IMG/VR virus record: IMGVR_UViG_637000264_000001 | DNA length: 15,993 nt | Strand: one strand, 5' to 3' | Source of the DNA: a virus | Taxonomy: Duplodnaviria > Heunggongvirae > Uroviricota > Caudoviricetes | Part shown: piece after piece, positions 1-15,993 of the stretch | Numbering within the stretch: the stretch's first letter is position 1 | How the letters are laid out: each line of letters starts with the position of its first letter | Translations under genes and position numbers: made by a program | The notes under the pieces: generated by a model | What the model was told of the DNA's origin: nothing | Databases searched by the model: none | Seen by the model: only the letters and a program-made list of their open reading frames with translations

Positions 1-45
1 GTGATAGTCTTAATACTAGTTTTTAGACTTGTCATTGGAGAACAG

Positions 46-411
46 ATTATTGATGTCTTAGGGCCGGAGAAACGCAGACGGCGTACCACACAGGAAAAGA
101 TCGCAATTGTTCAGCAGAGCTTTGAACCGGGGATGACGGTCTCCCTCGTTGCCCGGCAACATGGTGTAGCAGCCAGCCAGTTATTTCTCTGGCGTAAGCA
201 ATACCAGGAAGGAAGTCTTACTGCTGTGGCCGCCGGAGAACAGGTTGTTCCTGCCTCTGAACTTGCTGCCGCCATGAAGCAGATTAAAGAACTCCAGCGC
301 CTGCTCGGCAAGAAAACGATGGAAAATGAACTCCTCAAAGAAGCCGTTGAATATGGACGGGCAAAAAAGTGGATAGCGCACGCGCCCTTATTGCCCGGGG
401 ATGGGGAGTAA
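46..411 (+). CDS. insC: IS2 transposase OrfA (InsC); expected initiator position reads ATT instead of ATG
   Basis: Translation ...[40 protein letters not shown]... ending PLLPGDGE matches InsC; codon 46..48 is att where InsC (MIDVLGPEK...) needs ATG. The ORF-track start at position 1 is a window-edge artefact. Confidence 0.8.
363..369 (+). promoter_or_regulatory. A6G slippery heptamer (aaaaaag), candidate programmed -1 frameshift site joining insC to insD
   Basis: gcaaaaaagtgg at the insC/insD overlap; IS3-family elements make an OrfAB fusion by -1 slippage on A6G motifs (established knowledge). Confidence 0.7.
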
Positions 412-1274
412 GCTTAGTCAGCCGTTGTCTCCGGGTGTCGCGTGCGCAGTTGCACGTCATTCTCAGACGAACCGATGACTGGATGGATGGCCGCCGCAGT
501 CGTCACACTGATGATACGGATGTGCTTCTCCGTATACACCATGTTATCGGAGAGCTGCCCACGTATGGTTATCGTCGGGTATGGGCGCTGCTTCGCAGAC
601 AGGCAGAACTTGATGGTATGCCTGCGATCAATGCCAAACGTGTTTACCGGATCATGCGCCAGAATGCGCTGTTGCTTGAGCGAAAACCTGCTGTACCGCC
701 ATCGAAACGGGCACATACAGGCAGAGTAGCCGTGAAAGAAAGCAATCAGCGATGGTGCTCTGACGGGTTCGAGTTCTGCTGTGATAACGGAGAGAGACTG
801 CGTGTCACGTTCGCGCTGGACTGCTGTGATCGTGAGGCACTGCACTGGGCGGGGACTACCGGCGGCTTCAACAGTGAAACAGTACAGGACGTCATGCTGG
901 GAGCGGTGGAACGCCGCTTCGGCAACGATCTTCCGTCGTCTCCAGTGGAGTGGCTGACGGATAATGGTTCATGCTACCGGGCTAATGAAACACGCCAGTT
1001 CGCCCGGATGTTGGGACTTGAACCGAAGAACACGGCGGTGCGGAGTCCGGAGAGTAACGGAATAGCAGAGAGCTTCGTGAAAACGATAAAGCGTGACTAC
1101 ATCAGTATCATGCCCAAACCAGACGGGTTAACGGCAGCAAAGAACCTTGCAGAGGCGTTCGAGCATTATAACGAATGGCATCCGCATAGTGCGCTGGGTT
1201 ATCGCTCGCCACGGGAATATCTGCGGCAGCGGGCTTGTAATGGGTTAAGTGATAACAGATGTCTGGAAATATAG
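369..1274 (+). CDS. insD: IS2 transposase OrfB (InsD), DDE integrase-type catalytic domain
   Basis: 301-aa [33 protein letters not shown]...[24 protein letters not shown], overlapping insC in the -1 frame; matches recalled InsD over its whole length. Confidence 0.92.
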
Positions 1275-1333
1275 GGGCAAATCCAGTATAAGCCATTATC
1301 AAACCCACCCGTAGATAGGCTTTGTAATGGCTA

Positions 1334-1623
1334 CTTCTTCAGAAATGATTCGATGAATTCACGTCGAGGATGACGATAGTTCAGAATATCTTCTGGCATC
1401 CTCATAAAGCGGTTGTTGCCGTCTTTGGCAGTAACAAAACAGCTGTGAACTCCGCAGACATCCGTTTTGATCGTGTCGCTATACTCAAAAAGCAACTGAG
1501 CCATCTTCTCTTGCCATTCTGGAGGCATAGCCTCCATGAATACTCGCGGCATCACGCAGAACGACGCATGCGTAAGACCAAACCACAGTTGCAGGTCTTT
1601 ACGATATTCTTCATCCATCGTCT
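1334..1623 (-). pseudogene. Orphan 3' fragment (about 97 codons) of an unidentified gene, trapped between the IS2 right end and the IS911 end
   Basis: Minus-strand frame open from the IS911 boundary to stop at 1331..1333 (...EEYRKDLQLWFGLTHASFCVMPRVFMEAMPPEWQEKMAQLLFEYSDTIKTDVCGVHSCFVTAKDGNNRFMRMPEDILNYRHPRREFIESFLKK). The first 26 codons of track ORF 1331..1702 are IS911 sequence. Family not recognised. Confidence 0.5.
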
Positions 1624-1631
1624 TGAAGTGG

Positions 1632-2801
<1,170 letters not shown>

Positions 2802-2873
2802 TGGAGCACCTGTGTTGTTCTGAGGTGAGCATATCACCTCTGTTCAGGTGGCCAAATTCAGTGTGCCACTTCA

Positions 2874-3914
2874 CCTTTCTTTCCGAACCTTGTTGATCAC
2901 CTTCTGGTTAAGCATCACACGGCTGATGGCGTTGAAGATGGCATTTCAATCTGCTACTTCAAGCCATACTCGCAAGGCCGTGCTCGCTGGCAGGGTGACA
3001 CAATCCACGGCGTGTGGTTTGACGAAGAGCCACCATACAGCATTTATGGCGAAGGTCTTACCCGTACCAACAAATACGGGCAATTCTCAATTCTGACGTT
3101 TACCCCGCTGATGGGGATGTCTGACGTTGTTACCAAGTTCCTGAAGAACCCCAGCAAGTCGCAGAAAGTGGTCAACATGACCATCTATGACGCTGAGCAC
3201 TATACCGACGAGCAGAAAGAGCAAATCATCGCATCATATCCCGAGCATGAGAGAGAGGCGCGTGCTCGCGGTATTCCTACGATGGGTAGTGGTCGAATCT
3301 TCCAGATACCGGAAGAGACGATTAAGTGTCAGCCGTTCGAGTGTCCTGATCACTTCTACGTAATTGGCGGGATGGATTTCGGATGGGATCACCCACAGGC
3401 GCAAGTTCAGCTTTGGTGGGATAAGGAGGCAGACACAATCTACGTTTCACGCGTGTGGAAGGCGAAAGAAAAAACAGCCGTTCAGGCGTGGGGAGCCGTT
3501 AAATCATGGGCGCATAAAGTGCCAACCGCATGGCCTCATGATGGAAACCAGCACGAGAAGGGCGGCGGTGAGCAGCTCAAAGGGCAGTATGCAGACGCTG
3601 GATTTATGATGTTGCAGGAGCATGCGACATGGCCTGATGGCGGTAACGCTGTTGAGCCAGGCATCACTGAATTGCGCGACATGATGCTCGATGGTCGCTT
3701 CAAAGTATTCAATACCTGTGAGCCATTCTTTGAGGAGTTCCGCCTCTATCACCGTGATGAAAACGGGAAAATCGTCAAGCTTAACGACGACGTGCTATCC
3801 GCCGTTCGCTATGCATACATGATGCGCCGCTTCGCAAAAATGATGCGCGACATCAAAAAACCAAAAGAGAAAAAGATACCAGCCCCAATCAGGCCCATCG
3901 CACGGAGAACTTAA
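2874..3914 (+). pseudogene. Terminase large subunit, 5'-truncated by IS911 (about 347 C-terminal codons remain: Walker B onward plus nuclease domain)
   Basis: Frame open from the IS911 boundary: ...GDTIHGVWFDEEPPYSIYGEG... (Walker-B-like hhhDEE), later HFYVIGGMDFGWDHP and KLNDDVLSAVRYAYMMRR typical of terminase nuclease domains; stop 3912..3914 abuts the portal ATG. No Walker A segment in the window. Confidence 0.8.
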
Positions 3915-6080
3915 ATGGCCGACGAAAACAGACTCAATTCCATTCTGTGTAAGTTTGACGCAGACTGGATGGCGAGCGATGAAGCCAGAACCGAGGCGAC
4001 AAATGACCTGTATTTTAGCCGAGTGTCGCAATGGGATGACTGGCTATCAAACTACACTACCCTGCAATATCGCGGACAATTCGATGTTGTTCGCCCGGAG
4101 GTCAGGAAACTGGTCGCAGAGATGCGCCGGAACCCTGTCGACGTTCTCTTCCGACCCAAAGACGGCGCTAATCCTGATGCAGCCGATGTATTGATGGGGA
4201 TGTATCGTACTGATATGCGCCATAACACGGCAAAGATTGCCGTTAACGTTGGCGTTCGTGAGCAGATAGAGTCAGGCGTTGGTGCATGGCGTCTGGTCAC
4301 GCAGTACGAAGACAACGATCCAACAAGCAACAATCAGGTAATCCGACGCCTGCCAATCCATGAAGCCTGCTCACACGTCATATGGGACGCCAACAGCAAG
4401 CAGATGGATAAGAGCGACGCTAAGCACTGCACGGTGATTAACGCCTTGTCGCGCAATGGCTGGAAAGAGTTCGCAGAGGATTACGGTATTGACCCGGATA
4501 CCCTGCCATCTTTCCAGAATCCTAACGATACATGGCTATTCCCGTGGGTGTCGAATGATGTCGTCTACGTCGCTGAGTATTACGAGGTAGAAGAGGAGAA
4601 GGAGAAGGTCTTCATCTACCGCGACCCGCTGACAGGTGAGCCGGTCAGCTATTACCAGCAGGATATCAAAGACGTCATCGACGACCTGGCTAATCGTGGA
4701 TTCATTAAGGTAGCAGAGCGCAAGGTGAAGCGTCGGCGTGTGTATAAGTCGATCATCACCTGTACGCAGATACTGAAAGACCGCGAGAAGATAGCCGGAG
4801 AGCATATTCCAATCGTTCCAGTGTATGGCGAATGGTCATTCGCTGGTGACAAGGAGTGCTACGAGGGTGTGGTAAGGCTGACGAAAGACGGTCAACGCCT
4901 TCGTAACATGATTATGTCGTTCAACGCCGATATTGTTGCTCGGTCACCGAAGAAGAAACCGACCTTCTTCCCTGAGCAAATCGAAGGCTACGAATACATG
5001 TACGGCGGAAATGATGACTATCCGTACTATCTGCAGAACAGGACTGATGAAAACGGTAACGACCTGCCGATTGGTCCAATCTCCTACATGGAAAACCCTG
5101 AAGTGCCGCAAGCCAACGCTTACATGCTTGAGGCTGCCACCAACGCAGTGAAAGAAGTGGCTAGTCTTGGCGTGGATGCGCAGGCGGCAAATGGTCAGGT
5201 CGCTTTTGATACCGTCAATCAACTGAACATGCGGGCAGACCTTGAGACATACGTGTTTCAGGATAACCTGGCTACCGCAATGCGACGTGATGGCGAGATT
5301 TATGCCTCAATGGTCAACGATATTTATGACGTTCCTCGTCATGTAACGCTGACACTTGAAGATGGAAGCGAGAAAGACGTTCAACTCTATGCGCAAGTTG
5401 TCGATTACCAGTCCGGCAATGTGGTCACACTCAACGACATTCGCGGTCGATATGAGTGCTATACAGACGTTGGGCCATCCTTCCAGAGTATGAAGGAACA
5501 GAACCGCGCAGAGATTCAGGAGTTGCTCACCAAGGTTCCGCAAGGTACTCCAGAGTTCCAGATGCTGATGCTGCAATACTTCACGCTGCTTGACGGTAAA
5601 GGCGTCGAGATGATGCGAGAGTACGCGAACAAGCAACTGGTGATGATGGGGCTGAAGAAACCAGAAACACCTGAAGAGATGGAGATGGTGCAGCAGGCAC
5701 AACAACAGCCGCAGCAGCCATCAGCAGAGCAAATTCAGGCGCAGGGTATCCTTCTGCAAGGTCAGGCTGAATTGCTCAAGGCAGAGAACCAACAGGCGCA
5801 GATTCAGGTTGAAGCTGCCAAGGTTGAAGCCCAAAACCAACTCAACGCCGCGAAGATTGCAGAAATATTCAACAATATGGACCTCGACAAGCAGGCAGAA
5901 CTGCGTGAGTACCTCAGGCTCGTAGGTCAATTCCAGCAACAGCGCAGCAAAGATGCTCGTGCTAACGCTGAGCTGCTTCTTAAAGATGCAGACCAGACTC
6001 ATTCACAACGCATGGATTTCGCGAATCTTATGCGTCAAGTTCAAATCCCCTCCGGCGGAGTAGCCGAGACACCTCAATAA
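3915..6080 (+). CDS. Portal protein (P22 gp1-like, 721 aa)
   Basis: Full-length ORF; near-collinear similarity to P22 portal as I recall it ([11 protein letters not shown]...[15 protein letters not shown]...[15 protein letters not shown]...[23 protein letters not shown]...), with the Gln-rich helical C-terminus. Confidence 0.95.
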
Positions 6081-9053: not shown

Positions 9054-10471
9054 TGCCTATTCAGCAACTTCCGCTTATGAAAGGTGTCGGCAAAGACTTC
9101 CGAAACGCCGACTATATCGACTATCTGCCAGTGAATATGCTGGCTACACCCAAAGAAATCCTGAACAGCAGCGGATATCTTCGCTCATTCCCGGGCATTG
9201 CCAAACGTTCTGACGTGAACGGTGTATCTCGCGGCGTCGAGTACAACATGGCGCAGAATGCTGTTTATCGCGTGTGTGGCGGCAAGCTGTACAAAGGAGA
9301 AAGTGAAGTCGGTGATGTTGCCGGAAGTGGTCGTGTATCAATGGCGCATGGTCGGACATCACAGGCGGTAGGCGTTAATGGTCAACTGGTCGAGTATCGC
9401 TATGATGGCACGGTCAAAACCGTCTCAAACTGGCCTACAGACAGTGGATTCACTCAGTATGAGTTAGGTTCAGTTCGCGACATTACGCGCTTACGTGGGC
9501 GTTATGCGTGGTCAAAAGACGGAACTGATTCATGGTTTATCACTGACCTTGAAGACGAATCTCATCCTGACCGTTACAGCGCACAATATCGTGCCGAGTC
9601 TCAGCCTGACGGCATCATCGGTATCGGGACATGGCGAGACTTCATCGTCTGCTTTGGTTCATCGACTATTGAATATTTCTCCCTGACTGGCGCAACCACC
9701 GTTGGTGCCGCTTTGTATGTTGCACAACCATCGCTGATGGTGCAGAAAGGCATTGCCGGAACTTACTGCAAAACGCCATTCGCTGATTCGTATGCGTTTA
9801 TCAGCAATCCGGCAACGGGTGCGCCGTCTGTGTATATCATCGACTCCGGTCAGGTGTCACCAATTGCCAGCGCGAGCATTGAGAAAATCCTCCGCTCCTA
9901 CACTGCTGATGAACTGGCTGATGGTGTGATGGAATCGCTGCGATTTGATGCTCATGAGTTGCTGATTATCCACCTTCCGCGTCACGTCCTCGTGTACGAC
10001 GCATCTTCAATCGCCAATGGCCCACAATGGTGTGTGCTGAAAACAGGTCTGTATGACGATGTGTACCGCGCTATCGACTTCGTTTACGAAGGCAATCAGA
10101 TAACGTGCGGCGATAAGCTGGAATCTGTTACCGGGAAACTGCAATTCGATATCAGCAGCCAGTACGACAAGCAACAGGAACACCTGCTGTTTACTCCACT
10201 CTTCAAAGCGGATAACGCCAGAGTGTTCGACCTTGAGGTTGAATCGTCAACTGGCGTTGCGCAGTACGCCGACCGCCTTTTTCTCTCTGCAACCACTGAC
10301 TGCATCAATTACGGGCGTGAGCAGATGATTGAGCAGAATGAACCGTTCGTTTACGACAAGCGTGTTTTGTGGAAGCGAGTAGGGCGCATCAGGAAAAATG
10401 TCGGCTTCAAATTGCGCGTTATCACGAAGTCACCTGTCACTCTGTCTGGCGCTCAGATAAGGATTGAGTAA
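9053..10471 (+). CDS. Tail-accessory protein (P22 gp10-like, 472 aa)
   Basis: [49 protein letters not shown]... strong collinear match to P22 gp10, same length; taatg overlap with upstream gene. Confidence 0.9.
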
Positions 10472-11319
10472 TGGCTGATTCGAATCTCAATGTGCCGGTA
10501 ATCATCCAAGCTACGCGGCTCGATACATCAGTCCTTCCACGCAATATCTTCTCGCAGTCGTATCTGCTTTACGTTATCGCACAGGGCACTGATGTTGGTA
10601 ACGTGGCTAACAAAGCCAACGAGGCCGGACAGGGCGCTTATGATGCACAGGTCAGGAACGATGAGCAGGATGTGATTCTCGCTGACCATGAGCAGCGAAT
10701 TTCTGCTGCGGAAGCAACGCTTGTTAATCATGAGGAGCGAATCAGACAGGCAGAATCAACTCTTCAGGACCATGAAACACGAATAGCTCAGAATGAAAGC
10801 GATATTTCGTCGCTTGACACAAGAGTTCAGTCGCTGGAGTCGCAGGTTTCAGACCATGAAACGCGCATCGATGCTCTGGAGTATGCAACCACACGCAAGA
10901 AGTCAGAGGTTGTTTACTCTGGTGTATCTGTAACCATCCCGACAGCGCCGACCAACCTTGTTAGCCTGCTGAAAACGCTCACACCGTCATCCGGCTCGTT
11001 GGCACCATTCTTCGACACCGTTAACAACAAGATGGTTGTGTTCAACGAGAACAAAACCCTGCTCTTCAAGTTGTCGATTGTCGGCACGTGGCCCAGCGGA
11101 ACCGCCAACAGGTCAATGCAGCTAACCTTTTCCGGCTCTGTTCCTGACACACTGGTCAGCAGTCGTAATGCGGCGACAACAACCGACAACATCCTGTTAG
11201 CTACGTTCTTCAGCGTGGATAAAGACGGCTTTCTTGCCACAAATGGCAGTACGTTAACCATTCAGTCGAATGGTGCGGCGTTTACTGCCACAACCATCAA
11301 GATAATCGCGGAGCAGTGA
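10471..11319 (+). CDS. Tail needle protein (P22 gp26 family) with C-terminal knob domain (Sf6/HK620 type, 282 aa)
   Basis: N-terminus [43 protein letters not shown] matches gp26; central heptad-repeat coiled coil; C-terminal ~140 aa non-helical Ser/Thr-rich extension. Confidence 0.85.
10684..10880 (+). repeat. Tandem ~42-nt (14-codon) periodic repeats encoding DHExRI-type coiled-coil units within the tail needle gene
   Basis: gaccatgagcagcgaat (10684), aatcatgaggagcgaat (10726), gaccatgaaacacgaat (10768), gaccatgaaacgcgcat (10851); protein [67 protein letters not shown]. Confidence 0.7.
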
Positions 11320-11776: not shown

Positions 11777-12469
11777 ATGTTATATGCATTTAAGCTGGGC
11801 AGAAAACTGCGCGGCGAGGAACCTTATTGCCCTGAAAAAGGCGGGAAAGGTGGCAGTTCTGATAAAAGCGCAAAGTATGCAGCAGAAGCCCAGAAGTATG
11901 CTGCAGACCTGCAAAATCAGCAGTGGCAGACGATCATGAAAAACCTTGCTCCGTTCACGCCTCTTGCGGAGCAGTATGTTAACCAGCTTCAGAACCTTTC
12001 CAGTTTAGAAGGTCAGGGGCAGGCACTTAATCAGTATTACAACTCTAAGCAGTATAAAGACCTTGCAGGGCAGGCGCGTTACCAGAGTCTTGCTGCTGCG
12101 GAGGCGACGGGTGGACTTGGTTCGACAGCCACAAGCAATCAACTGGCTACGATCGCGCCGACACTCGGTCAGTCTTGGTTATCAAATCAGATGAGCAATT
12201 ACAACAATCTGGCAAACGTTGGGCTTGGTGCGCTGCAAGGTCAGGCAAACGCCGGGCAGACGTACGCCAACAACATGAGCAGCATTGCACAGCAAAGCGC
12301 AGCTCTTGCCGCTGCTAATGCCAATAAACCATCAAGTCTTCAGACTGCAATTAGCGGTGGCACGTCTGGTGCGATTGCCGGTGCAGGTCTTGCCAGCCTT
12401 TTGGGAACATCAACGCCTTGGGGCGCTGGTATTGGTGCTGGTATCGGATTGCTTGGCTCGTTGTTTTAA
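11777..12469 (+). CDS. Ejection (injection) protein, P22 gp7-like (230 aa)
   Basis: Position after gp14-like; Gln/Asn/Ala-rich with Gly/Ala-rich hydrophobic C-terminus (GAIAGAGLASLLGTSTPWGAGIGAGIGLLGSLF). Confidence 0.75.
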   Translation: MLYAFKLGRKLRGEEPYCPEKGGKGGSSDKSAKYAAEAQKYAADLQNQQWQTIMKNLAPFTPLAEQYVNQLQNLSSLEGQGQALNQYYNSKQYKDLAGQARYQSLAAAEATGGLGSTATSNQLATIAPTLGQSWLSNQMSNYNNLANVGLGALQGQANAGQTYANNMSSIAQQSAALAAANANKPSSLQTAISGGTSGAIAGAGLASLLGTSTPWGAGIGAGIGLLGSLF

Positions 12470-12478
12470 GGGGGAATC

Positions 12479-13810
12479 ATGGCTACTTGGCAAGGAACAA
12501 ACGGCGGATTGTTGGCTGGTATCGGCGGCGTCAACTCAAACGCTCCGAGCGTAAATGACATCGGCAATACGCTTCAGCTTATCAGGCAGAACAATGATAT
12601 TGAGCGTTCAGGCGCTAACAATGTTGGGCTGACTGCTTTGCAAGGTCTTTCAGGTATTGCGGGTGTTTTTCAGCAGGAAAAGCAGGCTCAGCGGCAGAAA
12701 GAATTTCAGCAGGCGTACGCTAATGCTTATGCGTCTGGTGATCGCGGTGCTTTGCGTCAGTTGGCTACTCAATATCCAGACCAGATTGAATCCGTTCGTA
12801 AAGGCATGGGATTCATTGATGAAGAGCAGCGTAATTCTATCGGCACCTTAGCGGCTGGCGCACGCCTTGCGTCATCGTCTCCAGAAGCAATGCAATCATG
12901 GCTGCAAAACAACGCCGGTGAGTTAGCTCGTGTTGGCGTTAATCCTCATGACGTCGCTCAGATGTACCAACAGAACCCGCGGCAGTTCGGCGAATTTGTC
13001 GATCACCTGGGGATGAACAGTCTCGGGCCCGAAAAATACTTTGACCTACAGGATAAAATGCAGGGTCGCCAGGTTACCATGCGCGGTCAGGATCTGGATT
13101 CGCAAACCGCCGCTCGGAATCAGGCAATCACAATGCGCGGACAAGATATCCAGGCGAATTTAGGTCAGCAGCGCATTAATCTGGACGCAGAAACAAACCG
13201 CATTAACAACGAAAATAAGCGCCTTGACCGGATGCTATCAGCAGAAACTAACGACCTGAAGCGCCAGGAAATACAGAGCCGCATAGCAGCCAACAACCAG
13301 CAGTTGCAGCAGAAGCAGCAAGCGCTAAATGATGGCTACAAAGACGGCATCAACACCCTCACAACCAGCATGTTCACTCTGAACGATATCGTTAGTTCTC
13401 CTTCACTTAAGAGCATTACAGGCTTACGTGGAGTAATCCCCAACGTTCCAGGCTCACAGGCTGCAGACACTCAGGCACGACTTGATACCTTTAAATCACA
13501 AGCATACCTGACAGCGGTTCAGGCCATGCGAGGCATGGGCGCACTTTCTGATGCCGAGGGCAAAAAGCTCGACCAGGCTGTTGGTTCGCTGCAGAACTCG
13601 CAGAGCGAGGAGTCCTTTCGTCGCAACGCTGGCGTCATCCTGAACACGCTCAACCAGAAGCGTAATGAGGCGGTTGGTAAGTACGTTCAGCAAAACGGTA
13701 TCAAGCGAGTGGAAGCGCCTCAGGCTTCTATAGATTACCTGAAGCAGCACCCCGAGCTGTCAATCGACTTCATTAATCGCTACGGATATCTTCCATCTTT
13801 GGGGCAGTAA
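12479..13810 (+). CDS. Ejection protein, P22 gp20-like (443 aa)
   Basis: Synteny; Gln-rich predicted coiled-coil protein with internal repeat VTMRGQDLD / ITMRGQDIQ; RBS aaggggg upstream. Confidence 0.75.
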   Translation: MATWQGTNGGLLAGIGGVNSNAPSVNDIGNTLQLIRQNNDIERSGANNVGLTALQGLSGIAGVFQQEKQAQRQKEFQQAYANAYASGDRGALRQLATQYPDQIESVRKGMGFIDEEQRNSIGTLAAGARLASSSPEAMQSWLQNNAGELARVGVNPHDVAQMYQQNPRQFGEFVDHLGMNSLGPEKYFDLQDKMQGRQVTMRGQDLDSQTAARNQAITMRGQDIQANLGQQRINLDAETNRINNENKRLDRMLSAETNDLKRQEIQSRIAANNQQLQQKQQALNDGYKDGINTLTTSMFTLNDIVSSPSLKSITGLRGVIPNVPGSQAADTQARLDTFKSQAYLTAVQAMRGMGALSDAEGKKLDQAVGSLQNSQSEESFRRNAGVILNTLNQKRNEAVGKYVQQNGIKRVEAPQASIDYLKQHPELSIDFINRYGYLPSLGQ

Positions 13811-15541
13811 ATGGCTAATTACCGTGATTTGTTAGAGCAGGCTGGCGCACGTTACGGTGTGCCAGAAGGGTTGATGACTGCACTGGGTGCCAAGGAGTCT
13901 TCTTACAACCCTGCCGCAGTAAGCTCCGCCGGGGCTGTAGGATTGACTCAGGTCATGCCTGGGACATGGCGTGATATGGGTTATACCGATGAGCAAATGC
14001 AAAACCCCGAATATCAGGCTGACGCTGGCGCGCGCTATCTGGCAAAGATGTACCAGCAGTTTGGTAACTGGCGTGACTCTCTTCAGGCTTATCACGACGG
14101 TCCCGGCAACGTTATGAAGGCAAAGCGTGGTGAATATACGCCAGGACCTGAAGGCCGCGGTTACGTTGATGATCGCTTTGCTCAATGGGCTGGTGACCCG
14201 GTGACAGACTCAACAGTCGAACAGCGCGCCACCTCTGCAAAGGTACATCCTCAGCAAGACCCTAACAACCCGTTTGCACAACTGGAAGTACAGTCATCCG
14301 AACAAGTATCGGCATCAGGTGTGCAGTCAGACCCAAATAATCCATTTGCTCAGATTGAGCAGCAGGCAGCCAGTCAGCAGCCACCTCAACCCGTAAGTTC
14401 TGTCGCACCGAAACCTGTTCAGCAACAAACAGTTAATCAGGCCAATAATGCACCAACACGGGAAGAACCATCATTGATGCAACAAGCTGGCGATTGGCTC
14501 ACTGGTGGTCAAAGTGCAGGGCAAATTGCAGAACAGGCTGGTCGTGGTCTGGTAAACATACCATTTGACGTATTGCAGGGTGGCGCAAGTCTGATTAATG
14601 CAATCAGTCAGGGGCTTGGGGGGCCAAAAGTATTGGATGATGTTTATCGTCCAGTAGACAGACCGACAGACCCCTACGCGCAAGCTGGAGAGTCAATAGG
14701 CGGTTATCTTGTTCCTGGAGCAGGTGTAGCTGGAAACATGGTCATTGGTTCTCTCGCTGACGCGGCGAATCAACGGGGTGATTTTGCCGAAAATGCCGCT
14801 ATTAATGCCGGACTTAGCATTGCTACGCATGGCCTGATAAATGGCGTTACCCGTGGTGTTCGTGGTGCATCAAATATAATTAGTGGCAATAAAACATCTG
14901 CACAGAGAGCGACCACTGCGCCAACAGAAACATCACCATTCTCCGGTGATGCCGCTGCAGCAACAAATCCTGCGGTTCATGCCGCAGAGGCAAGAGTAGC
15001 ACAAGGTGTACCAATGACGCCTGCGACGAAGAACCCAGAGGAAGTCGTTCGCACAGTAGCAGCACAAAAAAGGCCAAATCTCGCTTCATCGCTTGATGAA
15101 CTAGATATCAATCCTCAGGCTGAAGTTCTGGAGTCTGCTGAAAGGCTTAATGTTGATTCATTACTCCCTTCACACTTTTCCGGGAACGAGCAATACAAGG
15201 CAGTTGAGCAAGCAATCAAGTCCCGTGCGGGTTCTGCTCTACAGGTGCAGGAAAATGAAGCAATCAGGCAGCTAGCACAGGGCGCGGGTGAGATAATTGA
15301 TCGCGTTTCCGGTGCAAAAGATGCTCTTGGTATGAGCGACAAGTTTATTGATACGGTCAATGGAAGAATGTCTGCGCTGATGAAACGAAGCGACCAGCTT
15401 TATCGCAATGTTGAAAAGGCGATGCCTGCAGGTGCAAAAATTGATGCGCCATCAACAAGGTCAATGCTCAAACAGGTGGCAGAAGATCTTGGCGGGATGA
15501 AAAACCTTGACCCTATTGAAAAGAGAGTTGAGGTAGCCTGA
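13811..15541 (+). CDS. Ejection protein (P22 gp16 position) with N-terminal lytic transglycosylase (SLT) domain; the last three codons and stop come from the adjacent IS600 end
   Basis: N-terminus has the SLT signature [28 protein letters not shown] ... AYHDGPGNV; the frame enters the IS600 terminus at 15529 and stops at 15539..15541 (...KRVEVA*), so the native 3' end is probably missing. Confidence 0.8.
14258..14359 (+). repeat. Direct repeat encoding DPNNPFAQ(L/I)E twice, 72 nt apart, in the linker after the SLT domain
   Basis: gaccctaacaacccgtttgcacaactggaa (14258) and gacccaaataatccatttgctcagattgag (14330). Confidence 0.75.
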
Positions 15542-15612
15542 GTTTAACGGACACTCCTTCCTGAAATAGAATGGCATCAGAAGGAGCTAATAATGAGCAG
15601 AAAAACCCAACG
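15529..15612 (+). mobile_element. IS600 left-end fragment (terminal repeat plus first 7 codons of orfA), interrupted by the IS629-type element
   Basis: tgaggtagcctgagtttaacggacactccttcctgaaatagaatggcatcagaaggagctaataATGAGCAGAAAAACCCAACG matches my recollection of the IS600 left end and orfA start (MSRKTQR); continuity then breaks into the IS629 terminus. Confidence 0.6.
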
Positions 15613-15993
15613 TGAACCGCCCCGGGAATCCTGGAGACTAAACTTCCTGAGAAAGAGGTAAACAGGATGACTAAAAATACTCGTTTTTCCCCCGAAGTCC
15701 GTCAACGGGCAGTCCGTATGGTTCTGGAAAGTCAGGGCGAATATGACTCACAATGGGCGACAATTTGTTCCATTGCCCCAAAGATTGGCTGTACGCCGGA
15801 GACTCTGCGTGTCTGGGGTCGCCAGCATGAGCGGGATACCGGGGGCGGTGATGGAGGGCTCACCACCGCTGAACGTCAGCGTCTGAAAGAGCTGGAGCGT
15901 GAAAATCGTGAACTGCGCCGCAGTAACGATATCCTTCGCCAGGCTTCCGCTTATTTTGCGAAGGCGGAGTTCGACCGCCTCTGGAAAAAATGA
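15613..15993 (+). mobile_element. IS629 / IS1203-type element (IS3 family), left end and orfA; continues beyond the window
   Basis: Left terminus tgaaccgccccgggaatcctggagactaaacttcctgagaaagaggtaaacagg followed by orfA; matches the recalled IS629/IS1203 left end. Confidence 0.85.
15667..15993 (+). CDS. IS629/IS1203 OrfA (108 aa)
   Basis: [108 protein letters not shown]; ends in ggaaaaaatga, the expected orfA/orfB overlap. Confidence 0.88.

Follow-up and report, generated by a model that had tools for sequence, protein, structure and literature searches.

What does the open reading frame at 13811..15541 encode, and could its product cut peptidoglycan when a phage enters the cell? The window, by which we mean the whole 15,993-nucleotide stretch that we analyzed, is an IMG/VR record from the Caudoviricetes (IMGVR_UViG_637000264_000001). 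The ORF is on the + strand, encodes 576 amino acids, and begins with an ATG immediately after the stop codon of a gp20 homologue. It is the third gene of a gp7-gp20-gp16 cluster, directly 3' of homologues of gp7 (PF25688) and gp20 (PF16928), so it is in the position of gene 16 of P22, as originally predicted. We propose, with a probability of roughly 85%, that the ORF is what remains of a P22-like gene 16 after truncation by an insertion sequence (IS), that its N-terminus is a mobile SLT domain plus tether that would cut peptidoglycan at entry in intact relatives, and that the copy in this window is a pseudogene. The features are:

11777..12466: gp7 homologue (Pfam PF25688)
12479..13807: gp20 homologue (Pfam PF16928)
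13169..13807, + strand: C-terminal half of the gp20 homologue (amino acids 231-443), co-inherited with the SLT/linker module
13811..15528, + strand: phage-derived part of a gene-16-type ejection protein (codons 1-572 and 2 further bases; intact relatives have 911 codons)
13811..14191, + strand: SLT (GH23, family-1, Slt70-type) lytic transglycosylase domain, amino acids 1-127 (from Pfam, AF2, and Foldseek)
13895..13897, + strand: codon 29 (GAG), Glu of the ES motif, predicted catalytic general acid (from alignments)
13940..13951, + strand: GLTQ, amino acids 44-47, SLT motif II (aligns to GLMQ of Slt70)
14087..14107, + strand: AYHDGPG, amino acids 93-99, SLT motif III of the AYNxGxG type (aligns to AYNAGPG of Slt70)
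14192..14470, + strand: Q/P-rich, predicted-disordered tether from the SLT head to the gp16 body, amino acids 128-220 (from pLDDT and composition)
14258..14287, + strand: box 1, DPNNPFAQ(L/I)E, amino acids 150-159 (conserved in diverged relatives)
14330..14359, + strand: box 2, DPNNPFAQ(L/I)E, amino acids 174-183 (on the same basis as box 1)
14471..14935, + strand: conserved gp16 N-terminal domain (PF26808, Phage_P22_gp16), amino acids 221-375 (from identity to P22 gp16 and the precomputed PF26808 match)
15529..15610, + strand: IS600 left-end fragment, 82 bp (100% identity to annotated IS600)
15611..15993, + strand: left end of a second IS3-family element (orfA at 15667..15993; 99.4% identity)

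Truncation of the gene in a prophage remnant

Gene 13 of phage Sf101 (AII27837.1) is the same gene: the SLT head, the twin boxes, the gp16 body, and the upstream gp7 and gp20 are all the same. It is 98.5% identical to the window at the nucleotide level over bases 1-1718 of the ORF, and the proteins differ at 7 positions before codon 574. But in Sf101, which is a viable phage, the gene runs for the full 911 codons, while in the window it breaks off at codon 573, at a junction with IS600. The match ends at 15528, and the break is just after GAGAGT: the window reads GAGAGTTGAGGTAGCC where Sf101 reads GAGAGTCTTTCGGG. The fragment that follows matches, at 82 of 82 bases, elements labelled "IS3-like element IS600 family transposase" by PGAP, and its TG... 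end abuts the target. The original prediction implicitly took the ORF to be a complete ejection protein, which does not hold: about 573 of the 911 codons are left, and the last three of the ORF (codons 574-576), along with the TGA stop (15539..15541), are supplied by IS600. The C-terminal 338 codons (574-911 of the Sf101-type protein) were lost to it. The lost region corresponds to positions 366-651 of the phrog_770 profile ("DNA transfer protein"), and this C-terminal region is complete in all functional members of the gp16 family. We also note that one PHROG profile has a length of exactly 576 positions, and that PGAP labels an intact 911-codon gene from E. coli as "missing C-terminus" at the exact Shigella junction.

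The second element is inserted into the IS600 fragment. The elements that it matches are annotated as "IS3 family transposase," one of them with a programmed frameshift, and we take it to be of the IS629/IS1203 type. In S. flexneri 2002017, this element ends ...GGCGGTTCA and psiF is directly after it. Complete genomes of S. flexneri encode the exact 576-amino-acid product, with an IS element and psiF-phoA-iraP-ddlA next in order.

It is very improbable that the ORF belongs to an active prophage and encodes an intact, working ejection protein. In favor of this, no stop codon interrupts the 576 codons of the frame, and the upstream virion genes, from portal to gp20, have their full length, but the intact homologues have 911 amino acids and the homology ends at the IS600 terminus. 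Also, the upstream terminase gene is cut down to its C-terminal 300 amino acids, adjoining IS911 and IS2, and we found no tailspike or integration genes at the remnant, where the host genes psiF-phoA follow the IS element. The prophage is thus an IS-bounded remnant that is fixed in the chromosome of Shigella flexneri, and its copy of gene 16 is a pseudogene. Because the gene was truncated by IS600 within such a remnant, this copy cannot act in infection. Could Shigella have exapted the truncated gene as a lytic transglycosylase of its own? About 1,950 collection blocks contain the exact 576-amino-acid sequence, many complete S. flexneri genomes among them. However, clonal descent in a young lineage explains this conservation. 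Inspection of the translation identified neither a hydrophobic signal-like stretch nor a lipobox at the N-terminus, and with no export signal, a product made by the host would stay in the cytoplasm. Strain 2002017 has no called gp7 gene at the corresponding position, which may reflect decay of the remnant. We view exaptation as very unlikely.

The SLT domain and its likely role in intact relatives

The original prediction described an SLT-family signature at the N-terminus, with a candidate catalytic glutamate at codon 29. Both were confirmed. Amino acids 7-110 match positions 2-110 (of 117) of Pfam's SLT profile (PF01464) with a score of 86.9 bits, as compared to a cutoff of 21.3 bits (E = 9.3e-25). 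Glu29 aligns without gaps to Glu478 of Slt70 (residue 4 of our protein aligns to residue 453 of the Slt70 chain) and to Glu37 of the gp16 protein of T7, which we take, from the established literature, to be the catalytic residues of those enzymes. In an alignment of 64 sequences, E29 and S30 are invariant, as are G44 and Q47 in motif II and Y94 and G97 in motif III, while L45, A93, and P98 are nearly invariant. The structure prediction for the N-terminal domain agrees: AF2 gives a lysozyme-like, all-helical fold with pLDDT of 86-98 over amino acids 1-110. Foldseek's top 30 matches in PDB are all lytic transglycosylases (probability of 1.00), with Slt70, LtgA, a Pseudomonas Slt, and MltE at the top, and the domain also matches T7 gp16.

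Slt70 from E. coli (PDB 1qsa, 1qte) and MltE are the best matches by both sequence and fold, and the ES, GLxQ, and AYNxG motifs are common to them and the window protein. However, the superhelical U and L domains of Slt70 are absent (about 160 of its 618 residues are aligned), inspection found no signal peptide or lipobox, and delivery would be by the virion and not by Sec. The closest functional analogue is T7 gp16 (internal virion protein D; PDB 7eyb, 7k5c). It is likewise the last and largest ejection protein, has an N-terminal SLT domain that is followed by an extended non-globular segment, and is delivered from the capsid to the periplasm (PMC8954989). But the homology to T7 gp16 is in the SLT domain only, at 28% identity, and the bodies are unrelated (PF26808 versus that of T7 gp16). 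T7 gp16 has 1,318 amino acids, versus 911 in the intact P22-like relatives, and P22-like phages form no core stack. BLASTP to T7 gp16 aligns just the SLT region, the PDB matches to it cover only amino acids 3-112, and phrog_342 (the T7 gp16 type) matches only amino acids 3-119, at profile positions 14-136 of 1,235. With homology confined to the head, membership in the T7 gp16 family is ruled out.

By analogy to T7 gp16, whose transglycosylase helps entry through highly cross-linked peptidoglycan (PMC8954989), the SLT domain of the intact relatives most likely cuts peptidoglycan during entry. The intact 911-amino-acid protein would be packaged in the capsid and ejected into the periplasm ahead of the DNA; P22 gp16 does reach the periplasm, probably ahead of gp20, and its N-terminal region has been modelled against the C-terminal plinth of gp20 (bioRxiv 10.64898/2026.09.03.749273). 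There, local cleavage of MurNAc-GlcNAc bonds, with Glu29 as the general acid, would open a space for the gp20 tube and for a gp16 channel in the inner membrane, as with T7 gp16. P22 itself needs no such domain to infect, and gp4 is the lysin reported for its virion (PMC5380687), so the head might be dispensable or needed only under some conditions.

We considered two other roles for the SLT domain. It could be catalytically inert, and just a structural or packaging module: P22-like phages without it are fully infectious, and three unrelated N-terminal leaders can stand in for it, so this position tolerates non-enzymatic sequences. But the ES dyad, GLxQ, and AYxxG are invariant or nearly so across modules of types A, B, and C and across free-standing SLT proteins, which indicates selection for catalysis, so we consider an inert domain to be unlikely. 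It is still less likely that the domain acts in lysis at the end of the infection cycle, like an endolysin, instead of in entry. SLT domains do occur in phage endolysins, and the PHROG matches include families with that label, but this domain is covalently part of a gene-16 ejection protein that is encoded in a virion-assembly operon, its N-terminus has no hydrophobic signal-like stretch by inspection, and its closest functional analogue, T7 gp16, is inside the virion. Cutting of peptidoglycan at entry remains our preferred role for the domain.

The gp16 body, the tether, and gp20

The sequence comparisons support the original prediction that the protein is a modular fusion, which we would describe as an SLT module joined to a gp16 body. 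Within amino acids 221-375, the match to P22 gp16 (about amino acids 225-375) is at 73.5% identity and begins at about codon 53 of P22's gene; PF26808 was also precomputed for the exact 576-amino-acid protein. The gp16 proteins of P22 and HK620 and Sf6p13 have the same genome position and the same mosaic organization, and the conserved N-terminal domain is shared by P22 and HK620 at 73-75% identity. We compared the N-termini as well: P22, HK620, and Sf6 have short, non-enzymatic leaders (MKVTANGKTF... or MAKAWKDV...) where the window protein has 218 amino acids of SLT domain and tether, and Pfam finds no SLT domain in P22 gp16. The same SLT-plus-linker module is found on three gp16 bodies, namely the Sf101 type, the HK620 type (in Dewey), and the Sf6 type (in P0114), and SLT-less versions of the same gp16 body are 94-98% identical. 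The right-hand boundary of the mosaic lies between nucleotides 618 and 652 of the ORF (about 14428..14462). Intact relatives are encoded by Sf101, Dewey/Huey, IME10, APC_JM3.2, and many prophages of E. coli, Serratia, Klebsiella, and Cronobacter.

Just 29 cluster representatives (at 50% identity) match the gp16 domain among 1.84 billion proteins, and at least four of the 29 have an SLT head, from at least three types of module. More distant SLT heads, at 57-60% identity, are found in "transglycosylase / DNA transfer" proteins of Skarpretter, Lumpael, sortregn, and ST231. In Skarpretter, the gene comes immediately after a gp20-like gene with a distantly related C-terminal half, and the other three carry both matches. 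The bodies of the Skarpretter-type proteins differ from that of the window protein, and in Skarpretter a twin motif, NVFDQF, flanks the SLT domain, whereas both boxes of the window protein follow it. A sequence search of PDB turned up no structure of the gp16 body. In a monomer AF2 model of the 572-amino-acid phage-derived product, confidence is low beyond amino acid 130, and most of the conserved gp16 domain has a pLDDT under 50.

The tether is predicted to be disordered, with pLDDT of 35-55 in most of its 10-residue blocks (versus 86-98 for amino acids 1-110). The downstream part of the protein had been described as rich in Ala, Gln, and Gly, and this is borne out: amino acids 126-220 are 17% Q, 13% P, and 11% A, and amino acids 221-375 are rich in G and A. 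The original prediction also described a 24-codon unit, containing DPNNPFAQ(L/I)E, that occurs twice. The motif does occur twice, exactly 24 codons apart, but only the 10-residue core is repeated (9 of 10 residues are identical), and the other 14 residues of the supposed unit match at 4 of 14 positions. An exact 8-residue repeat arose in 1 of 20,000 composition-preserving shuffles. At the DNA level, the two cores share 21 of 30 bases, and of the nine differences, eight are synonymous changes at third positions and one gives Leu/Ile. Since the cores differ this much in their DNA and the changes are mostly synonymous, the sequences point to an old motif that is conserved at the protein level, not a recent duplication of DNA. 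DPxNPFAQ(I/L)E boxes are at the same position in relatives that are just 60-69% identical over the first 230 residues, and AF2 predicts a short helix right after each box (H154-168 and H178-186). A large protein search with amino acids 1-220 found generic SLT proteins at up to 53% identity, plus three near-identical fragments, and no new architectures with the boxes.

The SLT module travels with one type of gp20 C-terminus. Amino acids 231-443 of gp20 are 97-100% identical in all nine of the phage records whose type-A SLT module is at least 95% identical. In Shimwellia, the C-terminal half of gp20 is 76% identical, versus just 48% for the N-terminal half. In P0002, which has no SLT domain, we found no similarity to the C-terminal half of gp20, although its gp16 body is 97% identical to Sf101's. 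Both this association and the conservation of the twin boxes across diverged relatives appear to be undescribed.

What might the boxes do? We suggest, tentatively, that they could be short linear motifs by which the SLT head docks on gp20, at its C-terminal plinth, in which case the C-terminal half of gp20, the SLT domain, and the boxes would be one co-adapted cassette that is exchanged as a unit; on balance we doubt it. Such docking would have a parallel in T7 gp16, where a "molecular tape" comes after the SLT domain. No docking of the boxes was seen in our AF2 model of the 572-amino-acid product, which is of low confidence there (pLDDT of 55-64 at the boxes). Binding to a periplasmic host protein is less likely than binding to the gp20 plinth. 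We take the boxes to resemble the NNPW part of the TolB-binding epitope of colicin E9. Other gp16-type proteins have related aromatic motifs: the HK620/Sf6-type and type-B leaders begin with MAxPWxxΦ, and Skarpretter has the NVFDQF pair.

Prior annotation and significance

GenBank, RefSeq, PHROGs, and precomputed Pfam tables already record the fusion of SLT to gp16. The product of Sf101 gene 13 is named "transglycosylase" in its GenBank entry and "lytic tail fiber protein" in RefSeq. It appears that the IS-truncated fragment from Shigella has become an annotation reference, from which misleading names, "lytic tail fiber protein" among them, are propagated. Casjens & Thuman-Commike 2011 is said to discuss the types of gp16. 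Within the open-access literature, we found no paper on an SLT domain in P22-like gp16, and the genome paper for Sf101 does not mention the domain.

Overall, the significance of the SLT-gp16 finding is modest. A sizeable subgroup of gp16-domain proteins have an SLT head, and its culturable members include Sf101 and the BASEL-type isolates Dewey and Huey. The linkage of the SLT domain and boxes to one type of gp20 C-terminus offers a testable handle on the contact between gp16 and the gp20 tube, which recent in-situ structures of P22 left unresolved. If the boxes do dock on gp20, then the cassette would span a gene boundary and be exchanged horizontally, and MAxPWxxΦ, NVFDQF, and the DPxNPFAQ boxes would be variants of one general docking signal of gp16.

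An SLT domain in the position of gene 16

The ejection protein that we studied begins, as the original prediction held, with a lytic transglycosylase (SLT) domain: PF01464 from Pfam matches amino acids 7-110 (E = 9.3e-25; 86.9 bits versus a cutoff of 21.3). AF2 predicts a fold like that of lytic transglycosylases, with pLDDT of 86-98 over amino acids 1-110, and the best fold matches in PDB are all lytic transglycosylases (Slt70, Neisseria LtgA, Pseudomonas Slt, MltE, MltC, and T7 gp16). The candidate catalytic glutamate is codon 29 (GAG, 13895..13897). Among PDB sequences, the top match by phmmer is Slt70, and this alignment is gap-free from residue 4 of the query (453 of the chain) past the ES motif, which pairs E29 with residue 478 of Slt70. 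By BLASTP, E29 lies opposite E37 of T7 gp16. E478 of Slt70 and E37 of T7 gp16 are the established catalytic residues. E29, S30, G44, Q47, Y94, and G97 are unchanged in all 64 sequences of an alignment of this protein with other gp16-type SLT fusions and free-standing SLT proteins.

The gene lies in a P22-like (Lederbergvirus) virion-assembly cluster on the + strand of the window (portal, scaffold, coat, gp4, gp10, needle, gp14, gp7, and gp20). Its placement in the gene-16 position was also correct, as it starts right behind the gp20 homologue, which follows gp7.

Features of the window
Left end: IS2, partial orfA 1..411 and orfB 369..1274
1331..1702, - strand: open reading frame
2499..2837 (orfA) and 1632..2472 (split orfB), - strand: IS911-like element
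3012..3914: large terminase remnant (C-terminal 300 amino acids only), adjoining the IS911-like element and IS2
3915..6080, + strand: portal gene
11777..12466, + strand: gp7 homologue (PF25688)
12479..13807, + strand: gp20 homologue (PF16928)
13811..15541, + strand: ejection protein, 576 amino acids, ATG directly after the gp20 stop
14258..14287: box 1, DPNNPFAQ(L/I)E core
14330..14359: box 2, DPNNPFAQ(L/I)E core

The tail needle gene (10471..11316) has an Sf6-type knob (PF16532, E = 2e-116) and not the P22-type needle tip. Phage Sf101 has a shorter gene (639 bases) at this position, which is a further mosaic difference inside the cluster.

Truncation by IS elements and its apparent effect on annotation

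Megablast found two intact relatives: gene 13 of Sf101 (911 amino acids, annotated as "transglycosylase") and phage APC_JM3.2 (over nearly the whole ORF length). Both match bases 1-1718 of the ORF at 98.0-98.5% identity, and the match ends there. At the junction, ...GAAAAGAGAGT is followed by TGAGGTAGCCTGAG... in the window versus CTTTCGGGCAG... in Sf101. From 15529 on, 82 bases agree completely (100% identity) with the termini of elements called IS600 by PGAP, so an IS element encodes the final three residues (EVA) as well as the stop codon. A second IS3-family element, presumably IS629-type, starts at 15611 (TGAACCGCCCC..., with orfA at 15667..). Given the IS elements at the left end as well, the prophage remnant is IS-bounded on both sides.

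The identical 576-amino-acid protein is present in about 1,950 blocks of the collection, including complete genomes such as CP001383.1 (which we take to be S. flexneri 2002017), and NCBI assigns related partial proteins to Shigella flexneri. In genomes with the identical protein, psiF-phoA-iraP-ddlA come directly after the IS element. This IS-bounded remnant is a fixed feature of the S. flexneri lineage; the ORF is a pseudogene. In S. flexneri 2002017 (CP001383.1; locus L013, 7964..8669), no gp7 gene is called where other strains have one, perhaps because the remnant has decayed further in some lineages.

That an ejection protein can carry a transglycosylase domain is a textbook principle for T7. 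The SLT-gp16 fusion is itself already known from its labels: "transglycosylase" (Sf101, 2014), "lytic transglycosylase domain-containing protein" (PGAP), phrog_21143, and precomputed PF01464 and PF26808. A 2022 review states that transglycosylase activity is absent from P22-like phages, and in the open-access literature we found no paper describing an SLT domain in a P22-like gp16. Small details that are possibly new are the conservation of the twin boxes and the linked half of gp20 (see below).

In E. coli F1005 (NZ_OY754353.1; locus L002, 3812..6547), an intact 911-codon ORF is called a pseudogene by PGAP ('missing C-terminus'), and the PGAP feature covers exactly 573 codons, ending where the Shigella copy meets IS600. 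The profile of phrog_21143 ('lytic tail fiber protein') has exactly 576 positions. It seems that the truncated Shigella fragment has become a reference and distorts the annotation of intact genes.

Exchangeable leaders, twin boxes, and a linked half of gp20

Amino acids 225-375 are 73.5% identical to P22 gp16 (from about codon 53 on the P22 side) and about 75% identical to gp16 of HK620, CUS-3, and epsilon34; the precomputed Pfam for this region is PF26808 (Phage_P22_gp16). Clustering at 50% identity leaves just 29 representatives of the conserved domain in 1.84 billion proteins, and an SLT domain is present in at least 4 of these. Aligning the N-termini shows three exchangeable leaders ahead of the conserved domain, and the P22-type and HK620/Sf6-type leaders are short and without SLT.

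Leaders of gp16-type proteins
P22-type: about 50 amino acids, MKVTANGKTF...
HK620/Sf6-type: about 60-70 amino acids, MAKAWKDV...
SLT plus tether: 218 amino acids

The SLT module, whose right-hand boundary lies somewhere from ORF base 618 to base 652, within the Q-rich stretch, is over 95% identical on three different bodies: Sf101-type, HK620-type (phage Dewey, 875 amino acids), and Sf6-type (P0114, 797 amino acids, from a cluster of 1,295 sequences). Conversely, the relatives P0002 and P0009 have bodies 94-98% identical to that of Sf101, with short leaders and no SLT. Because the leaders are interchangeable, the module sits on different bodies, and SLT-less twins exist, these sequence comparisons leave the proposed modular fusion well supported. 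There are other SLT arrangements: type B has two GPWxKYQ motifs ahead of the domain, and type C has a P22-like leader, then the domain. In Kosakonia phage Kc166B (locus L021, 3408..6558), the SLT head with a long Q/P/A-rich tail (310 amino acids) is annotated apart from the following 734-amino-acid protein, which suggests a split form of the fusion, or else a frameshift or sequencing error.

The original prediction had a 24-codon unit occurring twice just downstream of the domain. DPNNPFAQ(L/I)E does occur twice, with a spacing of exactly 24 codons (of 20,000 shuffles, one gave an exact 8-mer repeat), but only this 10-residue core is repeated, with 9/10 residues identical versus 4/14 in the remainder. 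The two copies share 21 of 30 bases and, by reading both sequences, nearly all differences are silent, so the repeat is old, and it is the protein sequence that has been maintained. Both boxes (DPxNPFAQ(I/L)E) are kept, with unchanged spacing, in relatives from Klebsiella, Shimwellia, and others that are only 60-69% identical over the first 230 residues, and the tether around them is variable. In the AF2 model, each box is followed by a short helix, and the rest of the tether has low confidence.

We also compared the N-termini of P0003, P0028, P0048-P0053, P0254, Skarpretter (L020), and Kc166B (L021). Many gp16-type proteins open with a short aromatic motif, MA-x-(P/A/F)-(W/F)-x-x-Φ (MAKAWKDV, MAGPWEKY, MATPWKEV, MANFFDQF), and a second copy is frequent in those with SLT: GPWxKYQ twice in type B, NVFDQF on both sides of the domain in Skarpretter, and NMFAQY plus NLFAEY in Kc166B. 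The NPFAQ(I/L) boxes of the window may be one more form of this signal.

The C-terminal half of gp20 (amino acids 231-443) is 97-100% identical in the Sf101, Dewey, and P0114 contexts, and in the P0002 context (same gp16 body, no SLT) we detected no similarity to it. In Shimwellia, this half is 76% identical and the N-terminal half only 48%. Within the phage collection, this half occurs at ≥95% identity in 9 records, and exactly those 9 full-genome records have the type-A SLT module (SLT head with boxed tether). The more distant phages Skarpretter, Lumpael, sortregn, and ST231 have both a related gp20 C-terminal half and an SLT head that is 57-60% identical, the two genes being neighbours in Skarpretter. 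A mosaic unit of about 1.3 kb over the gene 20/16 boundary (13169..14465), with the gp20 half and the SLT/box module always together, is seen in the window, in loci L015, L017, and L019, and in phage matches H203-H211. A recent preprint modelled the N-terminal region of P22 gp16 against the C-terminal plinth of gp20 (bioRxiv 10.64898/2026.09.03.749273), and co-inheritance could reflect co-adaptation, for instance if the boxes dock on the plinth. Plain physical linkage of neighbouring DNA could explain it equally well.

Proposed role in intact relatives

For the intact relatives, and not the copy in the window, we propose a mechanism by analogy to T7 gp16 and from data for P22. SLT-gp16 would be packaged and later ejected into the periplasm; exit of gp16 before gp20 is favoured (bioRxiv 10.64898/2026.09.03.749273). 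The SLT head, tethered or untethered, would cut glycan strands, E29 serving as general acid, and the disordered tether, some 90 residues long, should be able to span from the inner-membrane face to the peptidoglycan. The gp16 body would afterwards join the gp20 plinth, and the inner membrane would be crossed. Unlike these relatives, P22 has no SLT domain, and gp4 is the reported lysin of its virion (PMC5380687), so the SLT head is probably accessory. By analogy with T7, whose transglycosylase domain helps under demanding wall conditions (PMC8954989), it would probably be useful under such conditions.
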